From assembly GCA_964543655.1 (NCBI GenBank), contig CAZIZE010000053.1, positions 1 through 45,985 on the forward strand: a stretch of DNA of 45,985 nt, in the 5' to 3' direction. This document shows, piece after piece, positions 5,876 to 28,939 of this stretch (position 1 is the first letter of the stretch; each line of letters begins with the position of its first letter). The translations under genes and the position numbers were made by a program. The DNA is from an uncultured bacterium. Lineage in GTDB: Bacteria > DYJV01. Below the pieces are notes generated by a model. It did no database searches and had not been told where the DNA came from. It was given only the letters and a program-made list of their open reading frames with translations.

Positions 5876-6715
5876 ATGGTTAAAAATTTTCTAACATTTG
5901 ATATTGAAGAATGGTTTGACCGCAATTTTCAAACAGAGCTTCATAAAGGAAAGAGTAGAGAAAGCACACTACCGAATGATATAGAAAAAATAATAGATAT
6001 TTGTGCAAAATATAATATTCGTTCTACATGTTTTATTGTTGCTAAAATTGCTGAGCAGAAACCTGAAATAGTAAAAAAACTTCATTTAGCAGGGCATGAA
6101 ATAGCAAGTCATAGTTATGAACATAAACTTGTTTATAATATGACCCCTGATGAATTTAATAAAGATTTAAAAAAATCCTGTGATATACTGCAAAATATAA
6201 CAGGAGAAAAAGTTTTTGGTTATAGAGCACCATCATGGTCTGTTAATGAAAATATAGCAAACTGGTTTTATGATATTTTATCTGAAAATGGTTTAAAGTA
6301 TTCCTCTTCAGTTTACCCTGCAAAAACTTATCTTTATGGTTATCCAGAATTTCCTGAGAAAATACATTTTCCTCTTATTAATGGAGATAAAAAAAAGATT
6401 CTTGAAATTCCACAAAGTTTAATAAATATTTTAAATAAAAAGATAGGTTTTAGTGGTGGATTTTTCTTTAGGTTATTTCCATTTTCATTTATAAAAAAAC
6501 AGATTGAGAAAAAAAATAAAAAATTACAATCTGTTTTTATATATTTGCACCCTTATGAATTAAGTTTTAGATTAAAAGGATTTGAATTGAAATTTTTAGA
6601 TAAATTTATTTTAAACTATGGTGTTAAAAATTGTGAAATAAAATTAAATAAAATTCTTTCCATTTACAAACATACTTTTACCACCATGAAAGAGTATGTT
6701 AGCAATTATGTATGA
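5876..6715 (+). CDS. Polysaccharide deacetylase (CE4; EPS-locus/DUF3473-type)
   Basis: LTFDIEEWF, GHEIASHSYEH, GYRAPSWS, YSSSVYP, GGFFFRLFP, IYLHPYE motifs. Confidence 0.9.
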   Translation: MVKNFLTFDIEEWFDRNFQTELHKGKSRESTLPNDIEKIIDICAKYNIRSTCFIVAKIAEQKPEIVKKLHLAGHEIASHSYEHKLVYNMTPDEFNKDLKKSCDILQNITGEKVFGYRAPSWSVNENIANWFYDILSENGLKYSSSVYPAKTYLYGYPEFPEKIHFPLINGDKKKILEIPQSLINILNKKIGFSGGFFFRLFPFSFIKKQIEKKNKKLQSVFIYLHPYELSFRLKGFELKFLDKFILNYGVKNCEIKLNKILSIYKHTFTTMKEYVSNYV

Positions 6716-7029
6716 ATATAGTTGTCAAGAGCATCTTTTCGAACCAACTCTGTAATATTTCTATCAGTTCTTTTAATTTTTGCATGATTTAAAGTTGATA
6801 AGAACCATATTATTGCAATGGCAAGATATATAATCATATCTTTACCTGTACCTATACCAAAAAAATGTGCAACTATATCTGACAATGGCGGAATTGCAAT
6901 AAAAATCAGCAAAATAAAATAAAATAGCACTAAAAAAAGCCTCATAAAGGTCTTGTATCTTCCAGAAAACATCAGTATTACTACTGAAATAGATAAAATA
7001 ATAGCAAGGGTTGTTTTTATAAATATCAT
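6706..7029 (-). CDS. DUF2304-like small membrane protein (partner of DPM-synthase-like GT2)
   Basis: 107 aa, 3 TM, 'AHFFGIGTGKDMIIY' and C-terminal 'ITELVRKDA'; ATGA-coupled to the upstream GT2. Confidence 0.8.
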   Translation of the reverse strand: MIFIKTTLAIILSISVVILMFSGRYKTFMRLFLVLFYFILLIFIAIPPLSDIVAHFFGIGTGKDMIIYLAIAIIWFLSTLNHAKIKRTDRNITELVRKDALDNYIHT

Positions 7030-7715
7030 TTGATTAACCTCTGTAAAATGTATTCAATTACAATATTTATACTATTTGTTAATGATTGGCCTTTTGAAAT
7101 GGAGTATTCTGTATAATATATGTGACACGGTAATTCTTTATATTTTAAATTATTCTCTTTTATAATATCATAGATTTCTGATGCATGCTCCATTCTATTT
7201 TGAGTAATTTTAAAATTAGGGCATTTTTTTATATTTATAACCCTAAAACCATTGTGAGTATCTGTTACTTCAATTCCATTGACTATCCTTGTAAAAATTG
7301 TGGAAAGTTTTAAAACAAACTTTTTCATTTTAGGTATTTCATTTTTTATATCCAAAAATCTTGAGCCTAATACAATATCAAGATCTTCCTGTTTCATAAC
7401 ATTTAAAAATTTTTCTATATCATTTGCATCATGCTGACCATCAGCATCAAATGTTACAATATATGTAACATCTAATTTTTTAGCCATTTCAATACCAGTT
7501 TGAAGTGCAGCACCCTGTCCAAGGTTAATTAAATGCTTCATTAAAAAAATACCTTTTACTGATTTAACTATTTCATAGGTTTTATCAGTTGATGCATCAT
7601 CAACAACTATTATTGCATCATCAGGTCTAATCTTTTTTAGATTTTCAAGTACATCTTTTATAACTTTTTCTTCATTATAAGCAGCAATAACAACAGCAGT
7701 TTCATACTTTTTCAT
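7026..7715 (-). CDS. GT2 glycosyltransferase, polyprenol-phosphate (DPM1-like)
   Basis: VIAAYNEE, VVDDASTD, NLGQGAALQTG, TFDADGQH, GSRF, TDTHNGFR. Confidence 0.92.
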   Translation of the reverse strand: MKKYETAVVIAAYNEEKVIKDVLENLKKIRPDDAIIVVDDASTDKTYEIVKSVKGIFLMKHLINLGQGAALQTGIEMAKKLDVTYIVTFDADGQHDANDIEKFLNVMKQEDLDIVLGSRFLDIKNEIPKMKKFVLKLSTIFTRIVNGIEVTDTHNGFRVINIKKCPNFKITQNRMEHASEIYDIIKENNLKYKELPCHIYYTEYSISKGQSLTNSINIVIEYILQRLIK

Positions 7716-8614
7716 TAACTTTCATCCCTTTTTTGATATTCAAAGTTCATTATTTCAAGTCTTATTGTCCTAAGTTGTTCTGAAAGCAGGGCAAATACTG
7801 AGAGTATAATAGTTACACAGAAAAAGAGAACAGTTGAATCAGATAAGTTGGCAGATATTAAATCTTTGGTTAAAGAAAATATAGTAAAAAATAAAAAAAG
7901 TAAAACTATAGGAGCCATAACTCTAAGTGGTTGAAAAATCATAGCAATTTGTATGATTTTCATAATGGTTTTCAACCCGGCTCTATAATTTACATGAGAT
8001 TTCCCTTTTTCCCTAATTTTTGTCTCTATTGGAACATATTTTACATTCATACCAAAAGCATAGTAACAAAGAGTTGAAGAAGTAGAAAAAGAAAATCTAT
8101 CAGAACAAAAGATAAAAAATTTTTTTATAATTTTTCTGTTAAATAATCTTAACCCTGAATTTAAATCTTGTATATCTTGCTTAAAAAGATAGCTTGACAT
8201 ATACTTTAGAAAGATTTTTCCTGGAATTCTATTATAAAAAGTATTGGTAATTTTCCTTGCTCCTATAATCATATCTTCTTCTTTTTCATATTCATTCAAA
8301 AGCCGGGGGATATCTTCAGGAAAATGTTGGCCATCTGCATCAAATGTTATAATAACATCATGTTTTGCAGCTAAAATTCCAGATTTAATGGCAGCACCCA
8401 TACCTCTATTCTGGAGATGATTTACTAATGTTATATCAGGAATTCTTTTCATTATGTTAAGGGAGTTGTCAGTTGAGCCATCATTAACGCAGACTATCTC
8501 ATAGTTGAGTTTTTTATTATTTAGACAATCTTTTAAATTTTTAATTACATCCTCTATTGTAGCTTCTTCATTATAAACTGGTATAACTACACTAAAGGGA
8601 AGATTAAGGGGCAT
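7715..8614 (-). CDS. GT2 glycosyltransferase, polyprenol-phosphate type with two C-terminal TM helices
   Basis: VVIPVYNEE, VNDGSTD, NRGMGAA, FDADGQH, DLNSGLR; hydrophobic C-terminus. Confidence 0.92.
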   Translation of the reverse strand: MPLNLPFSVVIPVYNEEATIEDVIKNLKDCLNNKKLNYEIVCVNDGSTDNSLNIMKRIPDITLVNHLQNRGMGAAIKSGILAAKHDVIITFDADGQHFPEDIPRLLNEYEKEEDMIIGARKITNTFYNRIPGKIFLKYMSSYLFKQDIQDLNSGLRLFNRKIIKKFFIFCSDRFSFSTSSTLCYYAFGMNVKYVPIETKIREKGKSHVNYRAGLKTIMKIIQIAMIFQPLRVMAPIVLLFLFFTIFSLTKDLISANLSDSTVLFFCVTIILSVFALLSEQLRTIRLEIMNFEYQKRDES

Positions 8615-10154: not shown

Positions 10155-12309
10155 GTTTTAACTTCCTTTCATATAAATATTTGGTATAAGCTCTATTGTC
10201 AATTTCATAAACTGTTAAAAAATCTCTTTCATCAAATACCCTGATATTGTTGTGAGTTTTAGAATAAAGATTGAGCCAGGATTCAAGTTGTAGTTCCACA
10301 TCTCTTTTCCATCTGAAAAACCATTCACCAGAGCCCCTGTAAGAATTTGGAAATGTTTCTTTCATAATATACACCCAATCAGTAGGAACTTTTAAATATT
10401 TATCAAGAGGATTATATTTTTCAATAAAAGTTTGTGTGTTTATATGAAATCCCTTGTCAAGAACCCTTGCATAACTTTGAACATATCCCACAATTGTCCA
10501 ACTGTATGGTTGTCTTAATTTTTTTATTTTGTAAATATCAAGAACTATTGCATTATATTGAATATTGTCAAGTGATGAGAAAAAAGTTTTTGTTTGATTC
10601 CATGTTGGTACAATAAAAATAGAAGTTATAAAAAAAGAGGTTAAAAAGAAAATAAGAAAAATATTTGAATATTTTTTTAAAATTAGATTAATAAATTTTT
10701 CAAAAAAATTAAAATAGATACCTGCACCAATCCCTGAAACAAGGAGGAGATATTCACAACTTCTTGATTTTGCAACTAACCTTGGAAATCCCAAGTTTTC
10801 ATGTACATATATTAGAATAATGGAAATAATAGCAAGGGAAACAGATGATAAAATAAATCTTTTATTTTTTTTGTAAAAAAAGGTTAAAGGGTATAACAGT
10901 GCAAGTAAAAAATAAAATATTAATTGTATTGGATAAAAAACAAGCTCAAAAATATTGGTAAGTCCACCACGTTGCAATTCTTGAAATTCTCTTTTGGTTT
11001 TAAATAATTTGTCCAACATTGGAGCTGCAATACCAAAGTTTTGTGGAATCCCAAATTTTAGAGCTGACAAAACCCATAGATTTCCAACTAAAGTTGCTAC
11101 TAAAATTGCAATAATACCTTTTTTAAAAATATTAAAATCAATTTTTCTAAAAATAAATGCATTAATTAAAATCAAAACACTTCCTACAAATAGATATAGT
11201 GCAGCACCTCCGTGGAATGTAAACACAAGACATAAGGTAATTGCATATAGTAAAAGCATGTGTAAATTTTTTTTCACAAATGTCATAATGAAAAAGTATA
11301 TGTAAAGTGGATAAAATGAGTATGCCATTTCATAAGGAAGCCCAGAATTAATTCTTATAAAAGGTATATAAGAATAATCAATTAACTCTTTTTTAGGAAA
11401 AGAGTAATAAAAATCAAAATAAACACTTAATCCATGAAAATTTAAAATATGAGGGTTATCAGTTCTATATACAAATCCCATGAGATAGGTTGAAAGAGGA
11501 GACAAAGTGTATAAACCAAAAATTATAACTGCAAATAGAGCACTATAGTGGGAGTTTGTAGTTTTATACATAAGGTAGTAAATACCTATTAATAGAAACA
11601 TGAAAAATAGAGAGGGGTATAAATTTAATAATACGTTTAAATCAATATTGGTAATGGCATTTAAAAAGAATATAATAATAGGAGGCCCAAAAAAGTAAGC
11701 ACCAATAGTGAGATTGTTTGCATATAGATAATTTCTTTTCATTAATGAAACCCATTCCATATATAAGGGCATATCAGTTGACCTGTAGCTTAGGGAAAGA
11801 AAATTTAATACATTCATGTTGTAAAGTATATAAATCAGCATAAGTATTGAAATTAAAATTCGCAAAGATTGTATAGAGGTAAGAGCTTTTATATTAATTA
11901 ATTTGGTATAATCTTTATACGTTTTTCCAAATTTTTGAAACCTGTAAAAATTCTCTAATAAATTGAAGACTTTTACCATTCCATCCTGATATTTTCGTTG
12001 TAAAATTACAAAATAGTTTTTCTTTTCAAAATAGTAAACCATAAAAGTTTTAAGTAAGAAAAAAGATAAAATCAGGGTAATAAAGGAAAAAATTCTTAAA
12101 AATAGAAGTAGAGCCACTATTAAAACAACAGAAATTAACATATACAACACATTAAATACTATTTTATCAAGATAATCTTCTATATTATCCTGAGGAAAAA
12201 TATATTGTGGCAGTTTGTAAAAAACAAGGAAAGTCATTACTAACAATTTTAGAAAATTTGGAAGAGTAACTTTTAATACTTCTGAAAATACTGAAATATC
12301 GGCAATCAT
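10132..12309 (-). CDS. Large polytopic membrane protein, GT-C-like; paralog of 22718-24913
   Basis: 725 aa, many TM helices, loop 'TDMPLYMEW', FTFHGG, soluble C-terminal domain; colinear similarity with 22718-24913. Confidence 0.6.
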   Translation of the reverse strand: MIADISVFSEVLKVTLPNFLKLLVMTFLVFYKLPQYIFPQDNIEDYLDKIVFNVLYMLISVVLIVALLLFLRIFSFITLILSFFLLKTFMVYYFEKKNYFVILQRKYQDGMVKVFNLLENFYRFQKFGKTYKDYTKLINIKALTSIQSLRILISILMLIYILYNMNVLNFLSLSYRSTDMPLYMEWVSLMKRNYLYANNLTIGAYFFGPPIIIFFLNAITNIDLNVLLNLYPSLFFMFLLIGIYYLMYKTTNSHYSALFAVIIFGLYTLSPLSTYLMGFVYRTDNPHILNFHGLSVYFDFYYSFPKKELIDYSYIPFIRINSGLPYEMAYSFYPLYIYFFIMTFVKKNLHMLLLYAITLCLVFTFHGGAALYLFVGSVLILINAFIFRKIDFNIFKKGIIAILVATLVGNLWVLSALKFGIPQNFGIAAPMLDKLFKTKREFQELQRGGLTNIFELVFYPIQLIFYFLLALLYPLTFFYKKNKRFILSSVSLAIISIILIYVHENLGFPRLVAKSRSCEYLLLVSGIGAGIYFNFFEKFINLILKKYSNIFLIFFLTSFFITSIFIVPTWNQTKTFFSSLDNIQYNAIVLDIYKIKKLRQPYSWTIVGYVQSYARVLDKGFHINTQTFIEKYNPLDKYLKVPTDWVYIMKETFPNSYRGSGEWFFRWKRDVELQLESWLNLYSKTHNNIRVFDERDFLTVYEIDNRAYTKYLYERKLKRDKLKSN

Positions 12310-13331
12310 TTGATTTCATTTAATGTTTTGTTGTCTTTTATTTTTTCTCCTGTGGAATTATCTTTTGCTTTATAATCTGTATTAACTATATCAGGCTGTG
12401 AATAATGTGGCTTTGAGTAAATATATTGAAGTAGTTTCCATCTTAAGAGTTCACCATTTTTATAGGAATCTACGTATTCAAAAGGAAATAAAAATATAAT
12501 TTTCCCTTCATAATAAGGAATAATAGATACAAGTGGATTACCAGCCCTATCTTTTATTACAGCTCCTTCTGGGATACTAAAAAAAGTTTCCACAGGGTAT
12601 CTTAATATTACTTTCAGGCTTTCCAAACCATTAAAAAAAGAATCGGTTATTTTTAAATTATTAAAAGAGATTGTTTTAGGTGTGTATCCACTTATTGATA
12701 TATACTTTGATACATAAGTTACTGTTGATACAGGAAAATTTATAAAGTGCAAATTGTTTGTAAGAATATTGATTCTATGTTTTATAAACTTTAAATTAAC
12801 CCTACCATATTTAGTAAGTTTTTCAAAACCTGTTGCATAAATTCCTGATTCTACCCATAAAACACCACCATTTTTTAACCACCATTTTAATACTGCTTGT
12901 TCTCTTTTTGAGATATTATAGCTGTAACAGATATTTTCAAAAAGATCTTTGCTAACATATTTATAATTTTCAAGCCAGATAGGCTTTACATAAATAACAT
13001 CAAGAATAAATGGATAATCTCTTAATTTCCAGAAATCAACATCTTTTATATCAGCTGCATTAATATGATAATTTTTGGTCTGGTAAAATTCAATGGGAAA
13101 ATTGCCTTTGAAATCAAGCATAGGATCTGTTGATATAAAAGGAAATTCATGCAGCCTTTTGTAAATACCTTGAGTTCTGCTTAATTTATCAAGGTTAATG
13201 TCATAAATTTTAACTGTAGTGCTTTGCATTAGAGATTTATCTAAGTTATTTAACATCTGGTCTTTACCAGAACAACCAAAGATTGATAAAATAAAAATAA
13301 TTATTCCTAAAAAATAGATTTTTTTTTGCAT
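12306..13331 (-). CDS. Lipoprotein of unknown function (class-I GATase-like fold suspected)
   Basis: Signal MQKKIYFLGIIIFILSIFG-C (lipobox); GGAGAG RBS favours ATG 13331 over GTG 13343; 'WLKNGGVLWVE' and 'GNPLVSIIPYYEGKIIFL' patterns. Confidence 0.7.
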   Translation of the reverse strand: MQKKIYFLGIIIFILSIFGCSGKDQMLNNLDKSLMQSTTVKIYDINLDKLSRTQGIYKRLHEFPFISTDPMLDFKGNFPIEFYQTKNYHINAADIKDVDFWKLRDYPFILDVIYVKPIWLENYKYVSKDLFENICYSYNISKREQAVLKWWLKNGGVLWVESGIYATGFEKLTKYGRVNLKFIKHRINILTNNLHFINFPVSTVTYVSKYISISGYTPKTISFNNLKITDSFFNGLESLKVILRYPVETFFSIPEGAVIKDRAGNPLVSIIPYYEGKIIFLFPFEYVDSYKNGELLRWKLLQYIYSKPHYSQPDIVNTDYKAKDNSTGEKIKDNKTLNEIK

Positions 13332-13344
13332 TTCTCTCTCCACT

Positions 13345-14925: not shown

Positions 14926-14926
14926 T

Positions 14927-16402: not shown

Positions 16403-16456
16403 ATATAACCCCTTAAATTTTTAGTTAAGTATAGCTGTATATGCAAAAAGTTTGCC

Positions 16457-17902: not shown

Positions 17903-17911
17903 AATATCCTC

Positions 17912-18700
17912 CTAAATAAATTTTTTCCCCTTTTTTCGGAACAATTTAGCATCTTTTTTAGTTGGAAAAGAATAATATTTTGCAAGCTTTATATTATTTT
18001 CAATTCTCTCGCAGTTATTATTTGCTATTCTGTTAATTGCATCTAAAAGTAGCTTGGGGCCAATTTTAATGCTTTTTTTATATAAAGAGTGTAGAGAGTC
18101 CTTGCTATTTATTGGAAACTTTTTTTGCACAATAATTGGACCATTATCAAGTTTCTCATCCATTTCATGAATTGTTATTCCAAATTCCTTTTCATCATTT
18201 AACATTGCCCAGAAAAGAGGCTGCCTGCCTCTATATTCAGGGAGAAGTCCAGAATGATAATTTATGCATCCGATTTTAGGAGCAGATAGAATTTCTTTTT
18301 TAAATATTTCTGGAGAAGCAATAGATAGGATAATATCAATTTTATTTGATTTAATATATTCTACAAAATTTTTAGAATTAATAGATTTAAAATTTACCTT
18401 TTTTATATTATATTTATTAATTACATTTTCCACTGAATAGCATTTCATTTTTGGAAAGAATATCCATAATATTGACATGAACTTATTAAATAGAATATAT
18501 ATTACCATTTTAATAAAAGCAATTAAACCATAATAGTTAAACCTATTTTTAAGCTCTTTAATAAAGTTTTTTTTATGAAATGGTGAAAGGCATATTATTC
18601 CAGCAATAATAAAAGATGATTCATTTAAAATTTCAATAAAATTATCTAAAAATTCAGGAATATATATTGGCACACTCTGTGTAATAATAAATATTTTCAT
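17912..18700 (-). CDS. Formyltransferase (probable sugar N-formyltransferase)
   Basis: INYHSGLLPEYRG...WAM, GITIHEM, LDNGPII; lacks the Fmt C-terminal domain; lies in a polysaccharide operon. Confidence 0.85.
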   Translation of the reverse strand: MKIFIITQSVPIYIPEFLDNFIEILNESSFIIAGIICLSPFHKKNFIKELKNRFNYYGLIAFIKMVIYILFNKFMSILWIFFPKMKCYSVENVINKYNIKKVNFKSINSKNFVEYIKSNKIDIILSIASPEIFKKEILSAPKIGCINYHSGLLPEYRGRQPLFWAMLNDEKEFGITIHEMDEKLDNGPIIVQKKFPINSKDSLHSLYKKSIKIGPKLLLDAINRIANNNCERIENNIKLAKYYSFPTKKDAKLFRKKGKKFI

Positions 18701-18719
18701 TGAAATTCCACTATCTCAG

Positions 18720-19487
18720 TTAATCTATCTTTTTTAACAAACATAGCACAAAAAGTGAAAATATAGCAGGCTGTATATTTGTTAAAATTTTTTCTATAAA
18801 AATCAGAGGTTTATAATAATATTTTACAATATTTAAAGGTATTCTAAATATCATTGAAGAGTTTACAAGAAGATATGCAATGTTACCACCATACACTGTT
18901 TTTATAATTTCAAATTTATTGTTAAACTTTCTCTTAAATAATGAAATATCAATAGATTGCTCATTTTGCTCAAAGAATTTAGGGTCAGTTTTGTACCAGA
19001 GCCTTCTTAAAAGATCAAATAACGATTTATAATTTGGTTCCCAGCAACAGAAATAACCATCTGGTTTTAAAATTCTATGAATTTCAATTAATCCTTTTTC
19101 TACATTTGGATGTAGATGATGCAGAGAATCTGTAATAATTATGTCAAAATAGTTATCTTTAAAATCTGTATTTAATATTGAGGCACAGATAACTTTATTT
19201 TGAGGAAACTTTTGCTGGTAAATTTTACAACACTCTTCTGATATATCAAGTCCAACTACTTTAGCTCCTCTTTTTAATAAGTAGGTTGTTGCTTCTCCAC
19301 CTCCACACATTGCATCAAGTGCTAATTTACCTTTTAATTCCATGTTGTTAAAAACCATATCATAAACCCAGTGTCTATACTCAAGAGCATATGGACTTGC
19401 ATAATGTTTGTCATACAATTCAGCTATGTTGTTATAATAACTTTTTTGAGTTACTTCAATATCAGTAAGATTTTCTTTTTTTTTCAT
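18720..19487 (-). CDS. Class I SAM-dependent methyltransferase
   Basis: LDAMCGGG motif I, GLDIS, FDIII...LHH, RILKPDG. Confidence 0.9.
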   Translation of the reverse strand: MKKKENLTDIEVTQKSYYNNIAELYDKHYASPYALEYRHWVYDMVFNNMELKGKLALDAMCGGGEATTYLLKRGAKVVGLDISEECCKIYQQKFPQNKVICASILNTDFKDNYFDIIITDSLHHLHPNVEKGLIEIHRILKPDGYFCCWEPNYKSLFDLLRRLWYKTDPKFFEQNEQSIDISLFKRKFNNKFEIIKTVYGGNIAYLLVNSSMIFRIPLNIVKYYYKPLIFIEKILTNIQPAIFSLFVLCLLKKID

Positions 19488-19505
19488 AATAGTTCTCCTT
19501 TTTAA

Positions 19506-20762
19506 TCAGGAAAAGATAAATTTTTTCCCTAAAAAATAGAGCATTACATTTTGAAATGTAAATACAATTCCTGTTGCAATTGCAGCACCTATTAAATTAA
19601 AATGAGGTATTAAAATTGAATTTAAAGTAATATTTAAACTTATGCTAATTAAAATGGTCATAGAAAAATACTCTGGCTTTCCAGCAAGATTAACAAAGCC
19701 GATAAATGGTTGAATAAAAGATGTACAGATATTAAAACCAATTAATATTAAAATAACATGCCAGCTTTTAAATACAATCTCCCTGTCAATATGAAGAATT
19801 TTCCCAAAAACAAATGGGTAAATGGAAACAATGGTGATTCCTGCTGTAATTATAAATGGAACATATCTCTTCCTGAATTGCCTGATAGTTTTTACTATTA
19901 TTTCAGGTTCCTTTTTGAAAAAAGCATTTCCAATAATAGGCTCAATATTTTTTCTTAGAACATAGTACAACATTGAGAAGCCATCTGCAATCATAGAGGC
20001 AAAACTATAAATCCCAATAGATTTTTCACTTAAAAAGTAACCTATCATTAGAATATCAATTTTAGTGTTTGTTTCCATTAATGCACCACCCCACAATCCT
20101 CTAAATCCAAAAGAAAGATGGGTTTTTATCCATTCTATATCAGGCATTTGAAATCTATTTACATAGTAGAAGAAATACACAACCAATATTAAAAATATTG
20201 TAAATTCAGAACAGCTAAATATCAATCCTAAAAGCTTATCTGGAATAGAAACAAAATAAAATATTATTAAATAAAAAAGTAAGAATATATATCTAATTCC
20301 ATTAAAAAAGGAATATCCCCTTATATTATTTAGCCCAATTAATCCCATTAATAACACTTTGTTTAAAGAAAAGAATAAAATAGCTGGCAACATGCTCAAA
20401 AATGGATAGGTGAAATCTCTAATATTAAATTGATTTAATATATGATTTGAAAAAGTATAAAGTAGAGAGATAATAATCAGTGAAATTACTATAACTATTA
20501 ACATAGCAGAAGTTACAACATTTGAAGCAAGTTTTTTATTAGAATGAAAGTGGGTGTTATATTTTAACACAGAGAGATGAACTCCTGCTGTAGAAAATTG
20601 AGAAATAATAATCAGGAATGAAAGCAGTAAATTGAATTTCCCTAAAAATTGAGCATCATATTTTTTTATTATAAAAGTATTTATTAAAATACCACAAAGA
20701 CCTAATGTAATAAAACTTAAAATAGTGAAAAATACATTTAAATCTAATTTCTTAGTATCCAT
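19506..20762 (-). CDS. Wzx/MOP-family oligosaccharide flippase
   Basis: 418 aa, ~12 TM, 'DILMIGYFLSEKSIGIYSFA', 'LNSILIPHFNLIGAAIAT'. Confidence 0.88.
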   Translation of the reverse strand: MDTKKLDLNVFFTILSFITLGLCGILINTFIIKKYDAQFLGKFNLLLSFLIIISQFSTAGVHLSVLKYNTHFHSNKKLASNVVTSAMLIVIVISLIIISLLYTFSNHILNQFNIRDFTYPFLSMLPAILFFSLNKVLLMGLIGLNNIRGYSFFNGIRYIFLLFYLIIFYFVSIPDKLLGLIFSCSEFTIFLILVVYFFYYVNRFQMPDIEWIKTHLSFGFRGLWGGALMETNTKIDILMIGYFLSEKSIGIYSFASMIADGFSMLYYVLRKNIEPIIGNAFFKKEPEIIVKTIRQFRKRYVPFIITAGITIVSIYPFVFGKILHIDREIVFKSWHVILILIGFNICTSFIQPFIGFVNLAGKPEYFSMTILISISLNITLNSILIPHFNLIGAAIATGIVFTFQNVMLYFLGKKFIFS

Positions 20763-20778
20763 AAGAATATCCGTTAAA

Positions 20779-22716
20779 TTAATAAAGTTTTGGCATTTTA
20801 TCTATAACTTTAATAACTTCGTCAAAATCAAGATTAATCAATTGTAAATATTCTCTTATTGAGTCCCATCTGGGTCTATTTTCACTTTTAACCTTTTTTA
20901 GAGCTTCTTCACGTGTAATCTGCCCCATTCTAATCTGATTGCTTCTTAAAGTGTCATTCTCTGTAAATCCTGCAACAGTATAGTAAATGTAATTGTAGAA
21001 AGCAGCTGTCCCATCTCCTATCCTCCATGTGGATGTGGTATCAGGAGCAACTTCCCAATTATACTCCTTTATTAATGTGGTGTTTATTTCATTTTCATCC
21101 CATGGAATGTAATCGTATAAAAATAGATAATCTTGTTTTATAAAGTAGTAGCTGAAGTACCCGAAAATAGTGTCAAAAATAGAAAGATTCAGATAAGATG
21201 GATTTAATAAAAATTCTTTTCCATAATAGAACGCTAATTTTACCCTTTTAAATAGGTCTATTTTATAATATTTACTATCTTTTCTTTTTTCTGGAGGCAC
21301 ATTTGCAAAGCCTGTTTTAAACTCAGTCTTTTCAAGGGGATTTTGAGAAAAAAACATTAGCTCTATTCCTGTGTGCTTCATTAATTGATTGGCAAAATAG
21401 AAAAATTGCTTATCTCCAGCGATAAATATTGGTATCATACCAAGTCGAGGCCGTTTTAACCAGGCTTTTACATTTTTGGCAATATTTCTTCTTTTCCATT
21501 TAATATCTGCTGATACCCATATATGCTCAATTCCCAATTTCCCGGTAAGTCTGGCTTGATTTCTTCTTGCAAGATTATTAACCATTCCCCAATCATAAGT
21601 GTAGGCAATGGGGTGCATTTGAAGTTCTCTTTTTATATAATGCAATGCAAATGAGCTATCTCTTCCACCACTAAATGCAACAATACAATCTGGTCTTCCA
21701 TTCTCTTTTCTATGTTGAGATAAAATTTCTTCTAACTTCTCCTTACCTTTTATTTTTGGCTTTGAAAAATTTTTACAATAATTGCATACTCCATCTTCAT
21801 CATAATGAATAAATGGCATGGTCTCTGGTAAAATACATTTTGAGCATCTTTTTAATTTATTTCTTCGTTCTTCTATTTTGTCATATTTATCTTCTATTTT
21901 TCTATTCTTTATTAAATTAGAGGTTACTATAATTTGTTTATTTTTATTTTTAATAAAAAATTTTTTATAGTTTAAGGTGCCTAAATCAACACTTACTATT
22001 TCACCTGCATTTATATGATATATTTCACTCTCACTTTTAATCCCTTTTAATTTATTCCTGCCTGCCAATGCTTGCTTTGCAATGTATTCTTCAGAAACAA
22101 ATAGAAAATCTGAATCCTGCTTAATAAAGTATAGTGAGCCAACATTTGTAGCAAGAATCAATATATTGTAATTTTCAAAAAGAATTGCAACAGATGCTTC
22201 ACCTTCAATTTCATTAAAAGTTTTTCTAATAGCATCTATTAAATTATCACCTTTATTTAAAAATATCTTTATTAAAACAGGAAAAAGCTCAGAATCAAGT
22301 TCAGATACCCTTTTAATTGATTGATGTTTTTCCCACAACTCATGCTCATTTGTAATAATGCCATTATGTACAACAACTATTCCATCTCGTTTAAAAGGTT
22401 GGTTATTAACATCAATTGCCTGTAATCCATTGGTAACTAAACGAGTATGGCCAATTACAGCAAAGTAATCTTTATTCTTAATTCTATTATAATTTCTCAT
22501 TAAATATTCTAAATAATCTTTTGTTTTTATCATTTTATGAGCTGGTAAAGAATCTTTATATATATCAATTACATTTTCAGAAACAATGGCTAATCCTGCT
22601 GCTTCTTTTCCTCTTGTTTCTGACATAAGAAATAATTTTTTTAAATTATTTCTCAGATGATTATATTCAAATGGCAACTTGTTTAAATGGTGAATAAAAC
22701 CAAAAATTCCACACAT
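20779..22716 (-). CDS. Class II glutamine amidotransferase fused to WbpG-like N-acetyl-sugar amidotransferase (PP-loop)
   Basis: N-terminal MCGIFG, GHTR, HNGIITN, DSE; C-terminal CSKCILPET...CNYC and SGGRDS PP-loop. Confidence 0.85.
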   Translation of the reverse strand: MCGIFGFIHHLNKLPFEYNHLRNNLKKLFLMSETRGKEAAGLAIVSENVIDIYKDSLPAHKMIKTKDYLEYLMRNYNRIKNKDYFAVIGHTRLVTNGLQAIDVNNQPFKRDGIVVVHNGIITNEHELWEKHQSIKRVSELDSELFPVLIKIFLNKGDNLIDAIRKTFNEIEGEASVAILFENYNILILATNVGSLYFIKQDSDFLFVSEEYIAKQALAGRNKLKGIKSESEIYHINAGEIVSVDLGTLNYKKFFIKNKNKQIIVTSNLIKNRKIEDKYDKIEERRNKLKRCSKCILPETMPFIHYDEDGVCNYCKNFSKPKIKGKEKLEEILSQHRKENGRPDCIVAFSGGRDSSFALHYIKRELQMHPIAYTYDWGMVNNLARRNQARLTGKLGIEHIWVSADIKWKRRNIAKNVKAWLKRPRLGMIPIFIAGDKQFFYFANQLMKHTGIELMFFSQNPLEKTEFKTGFANVPPEKRKDSKYYKIDLFKRVKLAFYYGKEFLLNPSYLNLSIFDTIFGYFSYYFIKQDYLFLYDYIPWDENEINTTLIKEYNWEVAPDTTSTWRIGDGTAAFYNYIYYTVAGFTENDTLRSNQIRMGQITREEALKKVKSENRPRWDSIREYLQLINLDFDEVIKVIDKMPKLY

Positions 22717-22717
22717 A

Positions 22718-24913
22718 TTATCTCCTGTTTTTAAATTTTTTTAGCTTTTCAAGATATTGTTTCCTATCCATCATTTTCACATACTCTCTGTTATCAATTT
22801 CATAAATAGTTGCCAGTTCAGAGGAAAAATATATTTTTATGTTATTGTGATATTGAGAATATATATTTATCCAAGCTTTTAAATTTTCCATAAGATCTTT
22901 TCTCCATCTGTAATACCATTCATTTAGCCCTTGAAAATTTGTATTTGGAATATTTTCAACAATTATAAAAATATACTTTGTATCTATTGGTAGATATGGT
23001 GCATAAGGGTTGTATTTTTGCAAAAAAGTACCAATATTAATATGGTATCCTTTATCAATAACTTTTGAAAAAGATTGCACAAACCCAACAACAGTAAAAG
23101 TGTAACCTTCTCTGAAAGTTTTTATTTTACTTAATGCAAGGGCAATTGAATTGTATTGAATATTATTAACATATTTAAAAAAAAGATCTGTGGAATTATA
23201 TGTTGGAACAAGAATCAATGAACATGCAATAAATATTGTTACTATAAACATGTTAATCCATTCTGCAAATTTTTTAAAGATAAATTTTATTACTCTTTCA
23301 AATGTATGAAAATATAAACCACTGTTAATTGCAGTAGCAAGGAATAAATAATCAGCACATCTTACCTGAGATACAACTCTTGGAAAGCCAAGGTTTGCAA
23401 AGTTAAAAATCAGGAGAATACCTATAGTGGCAATTGAAAGTGATGAAATTATAAATCTTTTCTTTTTAAAAAAAATTATGGATAAAAAGTAGAAAATCAA
23501 GAAAAGAAAGAATATAAATAGCTGGACTTTATAGTAGACTATGAAAGTTGTAATCTCCTTACCAGCTTCAAGAAGCTGTTTCTTCTGATTTGCTGTGTGG
23601 AATATTTTGTCAAGTATTGGAGCTGCGTTACCAAAATCTTGGGGAATACCATATTTTAACCATGAAAATAACCACATATTGCCAAATATTGCAGGAATAA
23701 GAATTGCCAGGCTTCCTCTTTTTAAAACTTTAAAATTAATTTTACCAAATATAATGGCATTAAGAAAAACTAAGAAACTTGATATAACGAGTAAAATTGC
23801 TCCACCACCATGAAATGTAAAAATGCAGAAAAGAGTACATGCATATAAAATAAAGTATTTTAATTTTTTTTTAAAAAAACATTGTATAAGGAAAAAAATA
23901 TTTAAAAAAAAGAATGAAGATGAAAACTCATATGCTAATCCTGCATTTAACCTTGCCCATGGAGAAGAGTTTATATCAATTAATTCCTTTTTTAATTCAG
24001 GTGATAAATTACCAAATGTTGCAAAATATATTTTAAAGTTAAAAATATGTAAAATAGGTGGGTTTTCTGTGGCTAACACATGTCCGGTAAGATATTTTGA
24101 AATTGGAGAAAGACAGTAAAGAATATACACAGATATTGCAAAAGTTGCACTGAAATGTGAATCAGTGGTTTTATAAATCACATAATATATTCCAAGCAAA
24201 ATAAATATCAAAAGCAAACTTGGATAAACTGAAAAAAGTATAACTGAATCAATATGGCTGATAATTTGTAAAAAAAATACAAAAATTGCCTGACCATAAA
24301 AATCTGCCCCACCTGTTTTATGGTCAGCATAAAGAATATTTTTTTGAAGATTTGCAACCCATTCAATAAATTGAGAAACATCTGGAGCTTTATTGCTAAG
24401 GCTAAAAAAATTAATAAGATTAATATCATATATTGCATAAACAAAAAATAGAAAAATAAAGGTATTTCTAAAAAATTTAAAATAATTTATATTTAAATTC
24501 TTTATTTTTTTGATTTTCAAATATTTTTTCTGTGAGAAGTATAAATAGAAGTCATCTAATTTTCTTAAAATTTTAAAAAAGAAAGGTGGATATGCCTCTC
24601 TAACCATTTTAAAAAAATTTTTTTTATAAAAAATATAAATAAGAGCTGCTTTAATTAGAATAAAAGCTAAAATTAAAGTAACAATGGAATATATTTTAAA
24701 AAATACAAGGAAAGGAAGAACTGCAAGAATGGTAGCAACCATATAAATAATATTATACATAAGTTTATCAAGGGGATCTTTAATATGGTCCTGCGGGAAA
24801 ATATACTTTGGCAAGATAACAAAAACAAAAAAAGAAATTAAGAGGAGTTTGTAAAAGTTAAAATTTGTTATTTTGAATACATTAGTAAATTCACTAAAGT
24901 CAACTATCAACAT
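22718..24913 (-). CDS. Large polytopic membrane protein, GT-C-like; paralog of 10132-12309
   Basis: 731 aa; shares YIFPQD, FTFHGG, GIPQxFGxAAPxLDK, LGFPR, NIQYN, DKGxHIN, EWxxRW, YEIDNR with 10132-12309. Confidence 0.6.
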   Translation of the reverse strand: MLIVDFSEFTNVFKITNFNFYKLLLISFFVFVILPKYIFPQDHIKDPLDKLMYNIIYMVATILAVLPFLVFFKIYSIVTLILAFILIKAALIYIFYKKNFFKMVREAYPPFFFKILRKLDDFYLYFSQKKYLKIKKIKNLNINYFKFFRNTFIFLFFVYAIYDINLINFFSLSNKAPDVSQFIEWVANLQKNILYADHKTGGADFYGQAIFVFFLQIISHIDSVILFSVYPSLLLIFILLGIYYVIYKTTDSHFSATFAISVYILYCLSPISKYLTGHVLATENPPILHIFNFKIYFATFGNLSPELKKELIDINSSPWARLNAGLAYEFSSSFFFLNIFFLIQCFFKKKLKYFILYACTLFCIFTFHGGGAILLVISSFLVFLNAIIFGKINFKVLKRGSLAILIPAIFGNMWLFSWLKYGIPQDFGNAAPILDKIFHTANQKKQLLEAGKEITTFIVYYKVQLFIFFLFLIFYFLSIIFFKKKRFIISSLSIATIGILLIFNFANLGFPRVVSQVRCADYLFLATAINSGLYFHTFERVIKFIFKKFAEWINMFIVTIFIACSLILVPTYNSTDLFFKYVNNIQYNSIALALSKIKTFREGYTFTVVGFVQSFSKVIDKGYHINIGTFLQKYNPYAPYLPIDTKYIFIIVENIPNTNFQGLNEWYYRWRKDLMENLKAWINIYSQYHNNIKIYFSSELATIYEIDNREYVKMMDRKQYLEKLKKFKNRR

Positions 24914-26823
24914 TAATAAATGTTTTTACCAGACAAAATATATAGTTGAATGGCAGTTGCATGTAAAAAACTGTCATTTAAAAACTTTGCCCTTAATGAA
25001 TCTGTATATACTTTTAATGAATCTGAATATTGCTTATATGTCCCTTCTCCTTTTAAATATCGTGCATAACTGATATCTAACCTTTTCTTTAAAATTTTGT
25101 TCTGCATATTGTATATATCTAATTTTAATTGAAGTTTTTTATAAGATGTGTAAAGTTTATTAATTGTAAGTGCAAGTGTCTTGATTTTGCTTGCAACCCT
25201 TAAAGCAGCTTTTGTAACCTGAAACTTTTTCTGGCTGATTTTAAGATTGGTATCATTTCTATTATAAAGTGGATATGTTGCTCTGAACCCCACCTGCCAT
25301 TCAAAACCTTTTCCTGAGTTTTTTGTCCCTTCCAACTCAGTTGAGTAACCATAGCCTCCATATGAAAAAAAGTCAAAATTCCATCCTTTTTCAGCAGCAG
25401 CAAGTGCAAGGTCGCTTTTGGATAATTTATATTCTTCTTGCAATTTTGCCAATTCTTTGTTCTGGCCAATTGCCTCTTTTTGTAAAGCCTGAACAGGCTC
25501 TCTAATCTCTTTATAAACAGGATCATACAGATAAACAGTTTTTGGTGAATCAAGGTTAATACTCTGTCTAAAAAGGTATTCTTGCTGTAAAAATTGCTCT
25601 CTAATATCACTTACAGCTATTTCAAGGTTATAATAATCATTTTGTGTGTCTATTGTTTCATAAATTGAAGTTGCATCTCCAGTTTCAGATTTGATTCTTG
25701 CAAGGTCAACCAATTTCTCCTGCTGAGTTAAAAGAAAGTTGTATTTATCTATTATTTTTTGCAAATACCATAAATTAAGATAAATCATAGAACCATTTAT
25801 TAACAATTTATCTCTTGCACTTAAAAGGTTAAGCTCACTTAATCTTTTAAAAATTATTTTTCTTTCATTATTGTAAAATCTTTTCTGTGCATCATAAATA
25901 TGCCAGTTAAAATAAAGCCCTGCTGTTGCATCTAATGATGCATAATTTGTGGCATTACCTACATTGTATGTTTTTCTAACAGTGGTACCTGCCTGAAATG
26001 AGAGACTTGGATTGTACCTGTCTGATTCTATTAAGGAATTTATCAAATAAAGTTTCGAATCATACTTGCTTGATTTAAAATCAAGATCACTTTTTTCTAA
26101 AAGAGCAAAATACCTTTTTAAAGAAAATATCTCATATTCAGAGTTGGACTTGTTATTAACTATATTTCGTGTGATTTCTGTGTCAAATTTGTTCATACTT
26201 TCTTGAAGTAGTTTAGCACTTAATGGAATTGAATTTTTATTGATAGTTTTTTTATTTCTATGTTGCTTTTCTGGAATAGTTTCTATGTTTTTATTATTTT
26301 CCACTTTTGCTACTTTAATTTGTGGTGCAGGTTTTCTAATAACCTCAACTGATGGTGGAGCCTCTTCTGCTTTTTTTATATGCTTTGGAACCTGATTGCT
26401 GCTAACTGAGGAGAAATGTGGTTGTGAAACCTTCTCTATTTCAGGTTGATTTTGCTCTATATTTTCTAATTTTTTAAAAGTATGATTAGGTAAAATTTTT
26501 TGAGATTGCTCAATATGATATTTTCTTGCAAAAGCTTTTGGAAATTCTGGCTTAAAATAGGTTACATTTCTACAAGCCTGTGAAAAACTTGAATAATCTC
26601 CACAGCAAATTCCATAAAATTTCCCATTGGCTCTTGGCTCAATAATACAATCATTCCTTGATGTAACAAATGAAGACAGTTTCCTATTATTCCAGATTAA
26701 GTTGATTTCATTTTTTGGATAAGCAGCAATTTGAACACAATAATGGTTGTTAGCTAATATATGACCTGTATATAAAGTAAATGAAACACAGATAATCGCT
26801 ATAAAGCAGGTTATTTTTTTCAT
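24913..26823 (-). CDS. TolC/OEP-family outer-membrane protein with N-terminal SPOR-like domain and low-complexity linker
   Basis: Signal peptide; YCVQIAAY...FPKAFAR SPOR-like segment; P/Q/E/K-rich linker; two repeats of helix + beta strands ending 'FNWHIYD' and 'ATYPLYN' as in OEP repeats. Confidence 0.72.
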   Translation of the reverse strand: MKKITCFIAIICVSFTLYTGHILANNHYCVQIAAYPKNEINLIWNNRKLSSFVTSRNDCIIEPRANGKFYGICCGDYSSFSQACRNVTYFKPEFPKAFARKYHIEQSQKILPNHTFKKLENIEQNQPEIEKVSQPHFSSVSSNQVPKHIKKAEEAPPSVEVIRKPAPQIKVAKVENNKNIETIPEKQHRNKKTINKNSIPLSAKLLQESMNKFDTEITRNIVNNKSNSEYEIFSLKRYFALLEKSDLDFKSSKYDSKLYLINSLIESDRYNPSLSFQAGTTVRKTYNVGNATNYASLDATAGLYFNWHIYDAQKRFYNNERKIIFKRLSELNLLSARDKLLINGSMIYLNLWYLQKIIDKYNFLLTQQEKLVDLARIKSETGDATSIYETIDTQNDYYNLEIAVSDIREQFLQQEYLFRQSINLDSPKTVYLYDPVYKEIREPVQALQKEAIGQNKELAKLQEEYKLSKSDLALAAAEKGWNFDFFSYGGYGYSTELEGTKNSGKGFEWQVGFRATYPLYNRNDTNLKISQKKFQVTKAALRVASKIKTLALTINKLYTSYKKLQLKLDIYNMQNKILKKRLDISYARYLKGEGTYKQYSDSLKVYTDSLRAKFLNDSFLHATAIQLYILSGKNIY

Positions 26824-26830
26824 TTTAATT

Positions 26831-26859
26831 ATAATAGCAATTTATATCATAAAAGTCAA
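26831..26859 (-). promoter_or_regulatory. Sigma70-type promoter of the polysaccharide operon (possibly leaderless)
   Basis: TTGACT (26859-26854), 17 nt, TGc-TATTAT (26836-26831), then 7 nt to ATG 26823; no Shine-Dalgarno. Confidence 0.65.
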
Positions 26860-26867
26860 ACAGTTTT

Positions 26868-27890: not shown

Positions 27891-27945
27891 AGTTAACTCC
27901 CTGTTTTGATTTTAATTTAAATAAAATTATTGAAAAAATATAAAA

Positions 27946-28146
27946 AGACCTTTGCACAGTAAAAAATGGTAAAAATTAATCCAATAGATAAGTAAATAAA
28001 AGTAACTATTTATAATGGATTCTTCGCTTTGCTCAGAATGATTTTTCAAGGTCATCCTGAAGGAGCGTAGAGACTTAAGAATCCATAACTTATTATTATC
28101 AAATAAAAATTTTAGCATATCACTAAAGATACTGTGTAAAGACCTT
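27946..28146. mobile_element. Putative non-autonomous MITE-like element with imperfect terminal inverted repeats
   Basis: Left end GACCTTTGCACAGTA (27947-27961) vs right end TACTGTGTAAAGACC (28130-28144): 12/15 inverted match; encloses a REP-like doublet; no coding capacity. Confidence 0.5.
28015..28086. repeat. REP-like palindromic doublet
   Basis: ATGGATTCTT...AAGAATCCAT perfect 10-bp inverted ends; units GATTCTTCGCTTTGCTCAGAATGA and GTCATCCTGAAGGAGCGTAGAGACTTAAGAATCC in opposite orientation; locally GC-rich. Confidence 0.7.
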
Positions 28147-28179
28147 ATAAAATATTTTCAATTTTTTTTCAATAAAAAC

Positions 28180-28227
28180 TTGACAAATGAACATATGTTT
28201 ATTATATTAGTTTTGAACATATGTTTA
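28180..28227 (+). promoter_or_regulatory. Sigma70 promoter with two identical palindromic operators
   Basis: TTGACA 28180-28185, 17 nt, TATATT 28203-28208; TGAACATATGTTTA at 28188-28201 and 28214-28227. Confidence 0.85.
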
Positions 28228-28239
28228 AAAGGAGTGGTA

Positions 28240-28913: not shown

Positions 28914-28939
28914 AATAAAAATAAAAGGAGGTGATTATT

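Follow-up and report, generated by a model that had tools for sequence, protein, structure and literature searches.

What does an operon produce that pairs a PelF-type glycosyltransferase with a presumed PelG relative, and in which none of PelA to PelE can be recognized? This question is raised by a 45,985-nucleotide stretch of bacterial DNA, contig CAZIZE010000053.1 (C53 in our numbering), which is called the window throughout and belongs to a genome of 2.26 Mb that is 94% complete and has about 28% GC. The window contains fifteen co-oriented genes on the minus strand (g1 to g15, from 26823 to 6706), which overlap or nearly touch each other, and a CE4 deacetylase gene, g16, that converges on the end of this operon, just as the initial annotation of the sequence had described them. 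Few synthase-dependent biofilm polysaccharides have been studied as well as Pel, and the initial annotation had proposed a divergent Pel-like exopolysaccharide system. Our answer is that the operon probably, with confidence somewhat above even, codes for a self-contained machine of Pel descent for the secretion of an envelope glycan, in which only the two core proteins of Pel are kept. Its product would be a secreted, aminosugar-decorated, Pel-like glycan.

Domains were called with Pfam and NCBIfam on the 17 proteins of the window (Table 1), and nearly all of the domain names first given to g1, g3–g8 and g12–g16 were borne out. By the same scans, PelA to PelE are unrecognizable in the window, as had been reported, and the proteins of the locus include no GGDEF match and no TPR protein. 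No family was found for g2, g9, g10 and g11, which were resolved by paralogy, fold or lipobox. Homology, fold and conserved linkage together establish the identities of g1, g2, g8 to g14 with g15, and g16.

The core pair and its conserved partners

The two retained Pel proteins are g8 and g9. g8 passes the PelF model NF038011 with 180.8 bits (cut-off 100) and is 30% identical to the canonical PelF that this genome carries on contig C9; residues E397 and E405 are invariant in its family. It adjoins g9 in 57 of 60 loci with 1.6 kb or more of upstream sequence. The start of g9 was corrected to 14925 from the orthologue in genome G005 and a database gene call. The protein had been named from its position beside the PelF-like gene, and structure comparison now gives it a MOP fold: in the model (predicted local distance difference test score, pLDDT, 84.4), residues of about 72–526 align with a Z-score of 23.0 to MATE1 and of 20.1 to both WzxE and MurJ. 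The first 70 residues or so fall outside all of the fold alignments and are predicted to form an appended N-terminal cytosolic domain. In the g9 family, 17 of 35 members, the window copy not among them, match Pfam PelG at E ≤ 1 (best 2e-8), and the open reading frames (ORFs) that immediately follow the g8 orthologues of G041 and G042 match the PelG model weakly, over nearly its full length. In our reading, g9 is distantly related to PelG and carries an extra domain at its N-terminus.

This domain is predicted to bind the glycosyltransferase. The modeled complex of g8 with residues 1–90 of g9 scored 0.90 and the best control 0.00, while three runs shared at least 82% of the contacts and the partner pLDDT was at least 78. 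Of 157 solved complexes 116 reached this mark, as did 2 of 215 mismatched pairs; these counts apply only approximately here, since the g8–g9 model was built from our own alignments. Twelve of the 16 invariant residues of the g9 domain lie in the predicted interface (4.6 expected), as do 9 of the 63 invariant residues of g8 (3.2 expected), and neither figure is independent of the alignment-driven model. Such docking could explain how the transferase stays at the membrane in the absence of PelD and PelE.

A scan of named genomes with the g9 profile yielded 67 loci, and the 17 window proteins were compared with all of their ORFs (phmmer, E ≤ 1e-5). Loci L014 to L059 (46 loci) come from Campylobacterota, Nitrospirota and Desulfurellales, with one contig labeled as Pacearchaeota, and were separated by locus number, which is a similarity rank. 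Twenty of them are well flanked, g9 being preceded by at least 3.3 kb and followed by at least 9 kb of sequence. All 20 carry g1, g8, g10 and a GT-C gene, 19 carry g12 and 18 carry g16; g13 is present in 9 and g14 together with g15 in 10, so that one or the other of g13 and g14 is found in 18. Genes foreign to the window recur as well, namely those for a FemAB/GNAT-like acyltransferase (18), an unknown protein of about 440 amino acids (10), an HlyD-like protein (10) and an MprF-type flippase-like protein (5). The predicted co-occurrence of PelF-like, HD-GYP, TolC-like, lipoprotein and GT-C genes is therefore real, each of these being found in 19 or 20 of the 20 loci, and they form a conserved unit. 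The fifteen genes as a whole are not one conserved unit, for g3–g7 are missing from the cluster of G005, and no homologue of them was found in the 67 loci.

The 21 loci of other, mostly monoderm, phyla, searched with profile hidden Markov models, keep the g8–g9 pair; a g12-like gene occurs in 14 of them and a GT-C gene in 6. Neither g1 nor g10 is found in any of these 21 loci, which come from Bacillota, Chloroflexota, Actinomycetota and Bacteroidota, and this absence fits an outer-membrane role for both proteins. In L060–L063 (Bacillota, Chloroflexota and Actinomycetota) the GT-C gene lies directly after g9, and GT2, CE4 and HD-GYP genes are also nearby in L060, L062 and L064, with a GH114 gene in addition in L062. 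The system is widespread but patchy. Database matches place proteins of the g9 and GT-C families in Caminibacter pacificus as well. A GH114 gene also stands directly upstream of g1 in 5 of the 20 well-flanked loci (Sulfuricurvum-type, e.g., L030:6061–6849). This upstream GH114 is 44% identical to the GH114 of the canonical pel locus in the present genome, and its linkage is only a hint of a Pel-like product.

Two features of the related loci were noted besides. The gene for the protein of about 440 amino acids, which has no Pfam family (L043:2300–3613, L055:18343–19671) and is absent from this genome, sits in the interval between the GT-C and HD-GYP genes in Nitrospirota and Desulfurellales, or at the downstream end after CE4 in Campylobacterota. 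The contig labeled as a Candidatus Pacearchaeota archaeon (L052) bears a full bacterial diderm-type system including the TolC-like gene, and its GT-C groups with those of Nitrospirota; the archaeal label is probably a binning error.

For the outer membrane, the g1 family profile aligns residues 46–400 of Escherichia coli TolC (1ek9) with E 1.7e-16. g1 also has a poorly conserved N-terminal extension of about 230 amino acids. This part had been called SPOR-like, a name that is not upheld by the scan of the isolated segment, in which SPOR is the sole Pfam match and stays below threshold (E 0.15, 12.9 bits, cut-off 21). No HlyD homologue was found in this genome by tblastn at E 1e-4 with one query, the HlyD of the related loci. 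The lipoprotein call for g10 proved sound, with the lipobox Cys24 invariant in 22 of 22 family members and a likely start at the conserved Met of codon 5. These members share no consistent Pfam family, no sequence relative of g10 was found in the PDB at E ≤ 1, and 4 of the 22 have an added C-terminal OmpA (peptidoglycan-binding) domain. Conserved linkage suggests, in agreement with the initial annotation, that the TolC-like channel and the lipoprotein may take the place of PelB and PelC.

The two large membrane proteins g2 and g11, which are 44% identical over their full length, had been described as GT-C-like, and this is what they are. The g11 model (pLDDT 81.4, predicted template modeling score 0.82) retrieved only GT-C enzymes at Foldseek ranks 1–31. 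With VIA-align it superposes on yeast STT3 (8agb_A) with a Z-score of 20.5 and a root-mean-square deviation (rmsd) of 7.7 over 428 aligned residues, and on ArnT (5ezm) with a Z-score of 18.5 and an rmsd of 6.8 over 422; the next fold class, the SEDS proteins, reaches Z-scores of 5–6. The GT-C core starts near residue 142, and the first four helices (about 140 residues) are an N-terminal extension. In the family D179 is invariant (15/15) and E185 nearly so (14/15). Both lie in the loop just after helix 145–171, the first transmembrane helix of the core, which corresponds, as judged only from the range of the alignment, to the beginning of STT3 and ArnT. GT-C enzymes carry their catalytic acid in the first periplasmic loop after the first core helix, a site to which D179 and E185 may correspond. 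Because the fold is clearly GT-C and none of 15 family members belongs to a relevant Pfam family, g2 and g11 represent an uncatalogued GT-C family, for which an exhaustive profile search returned 663 representative clusters at E ≤ 1e-3, 75 of them with E ≤ 1e-30.

In a tree of this family, g2, g11 and the two copies of G005 form one clade (support 100) nearest to sequences of Helicobacteraceae and Sulfurimonadaceae, so the pair reads as a duplication within this order. The pairing of GT-C genes, which had been offered as a general feature of the system, is thus lineage-specific and common only to G005. A fixed partnership between GT-C and GT2 genes (g2 with g14/g15, g11 with g13), at which the best matches had hinted, is ruled out by the same duplication. 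The GT2 type clusters on the GT-C tree, but taxonomy does too. As a putative supply of polyprenyl-phosphate sugar donors for the GT-C enzymes, the operon holds two such GT2 genes.

These are g13 and g14. g13 scores 97 bits against PgfS and 89 bits against the ArnC model, both below cut-off, and has transmembrane-like segments at 230–278. g14 reaches 208 bits against the PpgS model NF058614 (cut-off 370) and covers positions 3–223 of its 226. In each of the 10 loci with g14 the next gene is g15, and in the window the two overlap by 4 nt. The deacetylase g16 scores 208.8 bits against TIGR03006, below the cut-off of 276, keeps the H-S-x-x-H motif and has no signal peptide or hydrophobic leader. 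Because it lacks a signal peptide, g16 appears to fit the deacetylation of a lipid-linked sugar on the cytoplasmic face better than a PelA-type deacetylation of the polymer. In the mycobacterial case, as PMC9671496 describes it, PpgS and Rv3632 make polyprenyl-phospho-N-acetylgalactosamine (GalNAc). Unknown factors flip and deacetylate this product, and the GT-C enzyme Rv3779 then transfers it. NaxD deacetylates GalNAc linked to undecaprenyl phosphate, according to PMC10927774.

The last conserved partner is the HD-GYP protein g12. In its family H328, H360-D361, H389, H413-H414-E415 and D418 are invariant (28/28), and in the rest of the DGxGYP motif G419 and G421 are kept in 27 of 28 sequences and Y422 and P423 in 26 of 28. 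Compared with the solved enzyme 4mcw, its DvfDAL segment reads S-E-F-F-V-G-L, and in 26 of 26 aligned family members the canonical DxFDAL segment has become E-x-[YF]-x-G-[IL]; we take the first Asp of this segment to be a metal ligand. The genome has 13 GGDEF matches. A GAF domain was recognized in 12 of the 14 g12-like HD_5 proteins of other phyla, a GAF-linked HD-GYP layout that we take to be analogous to PelD. HD-GYP may replace PelD, as initially proposed, a reading drawn from conserved linkage. In one Actinomycetota metagenome-assembled genome (L065:2969–7328), the GAF-HD-GYP gene is preceded by a SpoIIE-GAF phosphatase gene, and genes for a STAS protein and an anti-sigma-type kinase separate it from the two GT4 genes and the g9 homologue; the layout looks like partner-switching control of the same core.

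Canonical pel genes, the g3–g7 insert and flanks

Whether the operon depends on canonical Pel is a question that the genome itself poses. A near-canonical pel locus lies on contig C9 at about 64213–75030 (L007:8214–19030). It begins with PelG (348 bits), with a 610-amino-acid protein of no family and a 268-amino-acid GH114 protein on the opposite strand, which are possibly a split PelA. It continues with a 1089-amino-acid TPR protein, a 425-amino-acid PelD-like protein with a weak C-terminal GGDEF and a 276-amino-acid protein, and it ends with PelF (395 bits), followed by LpxK. No PelC-like gene was seen there among ORFs of at least 100 amino acids. The GH114 gene on C9 is the only one in the genome, and the window has none.

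The initial annotation had considered that canonical pel genes might exist elsewhere in the genome and co-occur with the PelF gene of the window. The locus on C9 shows that they do exist, but the co-occurrence fails in the other carriers examined. In 5 of 5 of them, genomes of unstated completeness and one of only 1.1 Mb, the sole match to the PelF model is of the g8 type (153–177 bits), and neither a canonical PelF nor a PelG match above cut-off was found. As neither turned up in these five genomes, the system seems not to require canonical Pel.

The part of the operon that is peculiar to this genome is the stretch g3–g7. The corresponding contig of G005 has the compact order g1-g2-g8-g9-g10-g11, and because nothing stands there between g2 and g8, g3–g7 are best taken as an insert of this genome's lineage. 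No homologues of the five genes were found in the 67 related loci, nor g3 in five other genomes of the same order. The insert may be an alternative donor-tailoring module that supplies a formyl or acetamidino group instead of an acyl group, together with a Wzx-like flippase. Homologues of the GNAT, MprF-type flippase-like and 440-amino-acid proteins were not found in this genome by tblastn at E 1e-4; it has instead both GT2 types and the five-gene insert.

All of the closer NCBIfam assignments in the insert stay below cut-off, namely g3 against TIGR03573 (142.8 bits, cut-off 203), g6 against the ArnA model (111 bits) and g7 against HpnJ (164 bits) and PhpK (128 bits), its best models. g7 had been called a B12 radical SAM enzyme; the Radical_SAM domain is there, a separate B12-binding Pfam domain is not, and the B12 class stands by family similarity only. 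A relation of the g9 family to the Wzx-like g4 gained no support (hhalign probability <1%), a weak negative because the template was a single sequence. The fusion in g3 is not novel, as it belongs to a large family with at least 120 matches, most of which cover the full length or nearly so with about 50% identity. Members of this family are named inconsistently as asparagine synthetase B, GlmS or amidophosphoribosyltransferase.

Within the operon, consecutive ORFs overlap by 1–23 nt (g1/g2, g10/g11, g11/g12, g12/g13, g13/g14 and g14/g15) or are separated by gaps of 1–54 nt, and g16 overlaps g15 by 10 nt. The assembly is supported by contigs of run X1, possibly the source sample, which tile 8000–20843 and span the g7/g8 junction. 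Nearly identical fragments of g3, g4, g8 and g1 also occur in run X2 of a second study, and none of the X2 pieces listed bridges the insert junctions. Many read joints in the locus have sides of 21–39 nt in AT-rich DNA and were read as spurious. No RNA data covering the stretch g8–g10 are listed. The promoter-like site upstream of g1 is a consensus match only, in AT-rich DNA where 21 such sites were found against 9.6 expected. No terminator-like site was found in 26700–28300, and an Rfam scan near the operon gave no riboswitch, including those for cyclic diguanylate (c-di-GMP), and no other family, the only hit being a tRNA at 44148–44221.

The flanks are housekeeping genes, with mutS, leuD, leuB and cheV on one side and genes for DUF134 and Fe-S NTPases on the other. 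The latter group (28180–32656, plus strand) comprises a DUF134 protein with a zinc ribbon, two Fe-S-cluster P-loop NTPases, a Nitro_FeMo-Co domain protein and a ParA/NUBPL-type NTPase fused to a Nitro_FeMo-Co domain. None of the 67 related loci has a counterpart of g17, which for this reason probably stands outside the system.

Table 1. Genes of the locus and the promoter-like site, with their positions in the window (TM, transmembrane; aa, amino acids; SAM, S-adenosylmethionine)
Feature	Assignment	Coordinates	Strand	Evidence
Promoter-like site	44-nt gap upstream of g1	26831..26859	-	TTGACT-17-TATTAT, upstream TG, 10/12 matches
g17	340 aa, directly upstream of g1	26868-27890	-	No Pfam family; weak methionine-synthase-like NF002272, E 1.2e-4
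g1	TolC-like outer-membrane channel, 636 aa, signal peptide	24913..26823	-	Pfam OEP 71.9 bits, two stretches
g2	GT-C-fold membrane glycosyltransferase, 731 aa	22718..24913	-	Paralogue of g11
g3	Class-II glutamine amidotransferase fused to WbuX-like N-acetyl-sugar amidotransferase	20779..22716	-	GATase_7
g4	Wzx/MATE-like MOP flippase	19506..20762	-	Polysacc_synt 31.1 bits (cut-off 28.2), MatE 29.4 bits; about 12 hydrophobic segments
g5	Class-I SAM methyltransferase	18720..19487	-	Methyltransf_11 74.7 bits
g6	Formyltransferase, ArnA N-terminal domain/Fmt-like	17912..18700	-	Formyl_trans_N 86.7 bits
g7	Radical SAM enzyme, B12-binding class (by family similarity only)	16457..17902	-	Radical_SAM 90.2 bits
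g8	PelF-paralogue GT4 (DUF3492 + Glycos_transf_1), 491 aa	14927..16402	-	NCBIfam NF038011
g9	Distant PelG relative, MOP-fold membrane protein, 526 aa	13345..14925	-	Corrected start, model, fold match
g10	Lipoprotein without known family, 345-aa ORF	12306..13343	-	Lipobox Cys24
g11	GT-C-fold membrane glycosyltransferase, 725 aa	10132..12309	-	Model and Foldseek
g12	Membrane-anchored HD-GYP protein, 516 aa	8604..10154	-	HD_5 86.4 bits; one TM helix, residues 34-52
g13	GT2 with C-terminal TM helices, polyprenyl-phosphate glycosyltransferase of ArnC/GtrB/PgfS type	7715..8614	-	Glycos_transf_2 117 bits
g14	Soluble GT2, PpgS-like (polyprenyl-phospho-GalNAc synthase type)	7026..7715	-	Glycos_transf_2, NF058614
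g15	DUF2304 small membrane protein, Rv3632-type PpgS partner	6706..7029	-	PF10066 61.6 bits
g16	CE4 deacetylase with DUF3473	5876..6715	+	Polysacc_deac_1 75.3 bits, DUF3473 90.1 bits

A proposed pathway for the operon and competing explanations

We hypothesize that the products of the operon work in six steps. g8 would dock on the N-terminal domain of g9 and build a hexosamine-rich polymer from a uridine diphosphate (UDP)-sugar, GalNAc-rich by analogy with Pel, and g9 would pass this polymer across the inner membrane. In parallel, g13 and g14/g15 may load N-acetylhexosamine (HexNAc) onto polyprenyl phosphate, and g16 may remove the acetyl group on the cytoplasmic face, like NaxD and ArnD. In this genome g3–g7, which comprise an amidotransferase, a formyltransferase, two methyl-type enzymes and a Wzx-like flippase, would then re-tailor and flip the lipid-linked aminosugar; in most other carriers a FemAB/GNAT acyltransferase would act in place of the insert, in a few together with an MprF-type flippase-like protein. 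The GT-C enzymes would move the sugar onto the polymer in the periplasm, and the lipoprotein and the TolC-like channel would carry the product across the outer membrane. The HD-GYP protein could make this output dependent on c-di-GMP, in the role of a phosphodiesterase or of a sensor.

Several points weigh against this reading. The window copy of g9 gives no match to Pfam PelG (PF16933) even at E ≤ 10, and hhalign of the g9 family against the PelG of this genome, with a single sequence as the template, gave a probability below 1%. The counted loci are interrelated, many of them from Campylobacterota, so that the counts overstate independent support. The distribution among closer genomes is patchy: of 40 relatives only one, G005 of the same order, has the GT-C gene; a genome of the same genus (94% complete) has no match to the system; and in the order of the Campylobacterota carrier G043 the g9 family is found in 11 of 201 genomes. 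We know of no precedent for a TolC-type duct that carries a polysaccharide. The GT2/CE4/GT-C trio is a known logic for the modification of lipid A or arabinogalactan, and not for the decoration of an exopolysaccharide. The phosphodiesterase activity of g12 is uncertain owing to the conserved change from Asp to Glu, and in this particular genome the canonical pel locus could supply functions that are missing from the window.

A competing explanation makes a different use of the same proteins, in which g8 glycosylates a lipid primer in the cytoplasm, g9 flips it as a Wzx/MurJ-type flippase and the GT-C enzymes carry out most of the chain elongation in the periplasm with polyprenyl-phosphate sugars, by the logic of mycobacterial lipomannan and arabinan. 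The result would be a cell-bound lipoglycan or wall glycan rather than free exopolysaccharide. g9 superposes on the lipid flippases WzxE and MurJ (Z 20.1 for both) as it does on MATE exporters, the GT-C gene is as constant in the diderm-type loci (20/20) as g8 and g9, polyprenyl-phosphate sugar synthases are present in 18 of 20, and 4 of 22 g10 orthologues have an OmpA domain of the peptidoglycan-binding kind. On the other hand, 15 of the 21 loci of other phyla keep g8–g9 without a recognizable GT-C gene, so the pair apparently works without it, and the cluster has no initiating phosphoglycosyl transferase. Moreover, the GH114 linkage (5/20) and the homology to PelF and PelG point to a Pel-type polymer, and a TolC-like channel suits export better than a cell-bound glycan. 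We consider this route, the main rival, rather unlikely. The operon may also be no machine at all, and consist of independent modules side by side: an aminosugar set of the Arn/Nax/Lgm type for lipid A or lipopolysaccharide, a TolC efflux channel and the PelF/PelG pair. The sub-threshold matches of g13, g6 and g16 to the ArnC, ArnA and ArnD models, the HlyD-type adaptor genes near the cluster in 10 of 20 loci and the NaxD precedent, which concerns lipid A, would all suit such an arrangement. It is nevertheless improbable, as the order g1-g8-g9-g10-GT-C-g12 is kept over three phyla with genes that overlap or abut, the phyla of L060–L063 have no lipid A and still place the GT-C gene directly after g9, three of these loci as well as L064 have GT2, CE4 and HD-GYP genes close by, and no HlyD or RND/ABC partner was found in the window or the genome (tblastn E 1e-4, with the HlyD of the loci as query).

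Two further explanations have very little to recommend them in our judgment. g8–g9 and their neighbors might modify or re-route the Pel of the C9 locus and need its PelA to PelE; C9 does carry PelG, GH114, the 1089-amino-acid TPR protein, the PelD-like 425-amino-acid protein and PelF. Such an accessory role is highly improbable when five of five other carriers, one of only 1.1 Mb, keep the system without a canonical PelF or a PelG above cut-off. An ordinary Wzx/Wzy cluster for O-antigen or capsule, which the Wzx-like g4, the sugar-tailoring g3 and g5–g7 and the several glycosyltransferases bring to mind, deserves equally slight credence. Of the 17 proteins scanned, none matches a family of Wzy polymerases, O-antigen ligases, initiating phosphoglycosyl transferases or Wzz/Wza proteins, and g4 is part of the genome-specific insert, with no homologue found in the 67 related loci.

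A self-contained machine of Pel descent is thus the reading that we prefer. A more far-reaching version of it, which we offer only tentatively and hold to be less likely than not, is that the operon represents a new class of c-di-GMP-linked secretion pathway. In this class a dedicated docking domain would keep the PelF-type synthase on the PelG-type exporter and make PelD and PelE unnecessary, the GT-C enzymes would add lipid-carried, N-remodeled aminosugars in the periplasm, the exit would be of the TolC type and the HD-GYP protein would be the c-di-GMP sensor. Amino or cationic groups would then come from the GT-C family and not from PelA-type deacetylation. The invariant R39-D40-x-D42 of the g9 docking domain resembles an RxxD site and could take part in nucleotide control at the g8–g9 interface.

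If true, this would be the first TolC-dependent route of exopolysaccharide export and would widen the known roles of this channel family. The occurrence of the F/G pair without PelA to PelE in several phyla would make it a natural minimal variant, in which the predicted F–G docking domain offers a simpler model. The GT-C family, with its 663 representative clusters, and the g9 family, with hundreds of proteins named hypothetical, would gain a function. The carriers are sulfur-oxidizing and hydrothermal-vent bacteria, for which the formation of mats and biofilms is ecologically central.

Comparison with known systems

In the literature searched, we found no description of a system that joins PelF/PelG with HD-GYP, GT-C and TolC proteins, and the combination of a Pel-type core with GT-C enzymes fed by lipid-linked aminosugars and a TolC-type channel is new as far as this search goes. 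The main text of the Pel survey PMC7112194 does not mention TolC, HD-GYP or Epsilonproteobacteria. The roles of the Pel proteins are described in PMC7112194 and PMC7112168, and Pel is given as a partially deacetylated alpha-1,4-GalNAc polymer in PMC9135694 and PMC12022489. The Pel operons compared here are pelABCDEFG of Pseudomonas aeruginosa and pelDEA(DA)FG of Bacillus cereus. The locus shares with Pel a PelF-type DUF3492 GT4 that is directly followed by a PelG-type membrane protein, a GAF-linked signaling protein of the c-di-GMP family and, in some carriers, a linked GH114 hydrolase. It differs by the absence of PelA, PelB, PelC, PelD and PelE, by a g8 that is only distantly identical (30%) to canonical PelF and by a g9 that does not reach the PelG threshold and carries an extra domain at its N-terminus. 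Export in Pel relies on a TPR-porin and PelC, whereas the locus has a TolC-like channel and a lipoprotein of no known family; signaling in Pel uses the degenerate GGDEF receptor PelD, and that of the locus an HD-GYP protein. The CE4 domain of Pel is periplasmic and resides in PelA together with a GH114-type hydrolase, whereas that of the locus would be cytoplasmic, having no signal peptide. Furthermore, the locus adds a GT-C enzyme and synthases of lipid-linked sugars.

As a TolC/OEP channel, g1 is conventional in its two OEP repeats and in being alignable to TolC residues 46–400. It departs from this family in having no membrane-fusion protein or inner-membrane pump as a partner in the operon or the genome (tblastn 1e-4, HlyD query), in its long and variable N-terminal extension and in its fixed place beside genes of glycan synthesis.

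The decoration genes resemble three known modules, PpgS-Rv3632-Rv3779, GT2-NaxD-GT-C and ArnC-ArnD-ArnT, in which a GT2 synthase of polyprenyl-phosphate HexNAc, assisted by a DUF2304 protein, likewise goes together with a GT-C enzyme and a CE4 deacetylase that lacks a signal peptide. The first of these puts galactosamine on mycobacterial arabinogalactan and the second on lipid A. In the locus g14, g13 and g16 are all below the equivalog cut-offs for PpgS, ArnC and ArnD, and the GT-C enzyme comes from an uncatalogued family whose members are extended at the N-terminus by about 140 residues. Here the module is embedded in a PelF/PelG operon, and it is also present in phyla that have neither lipid A nor arabinogalactan (L060, L062, L063 and L064). 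Among the carriers of the system itself, the copy described here is set apart by its place in a deep-branching vent lineage, which has a canonical pel locus of its own and a duplicated GT-C gene.

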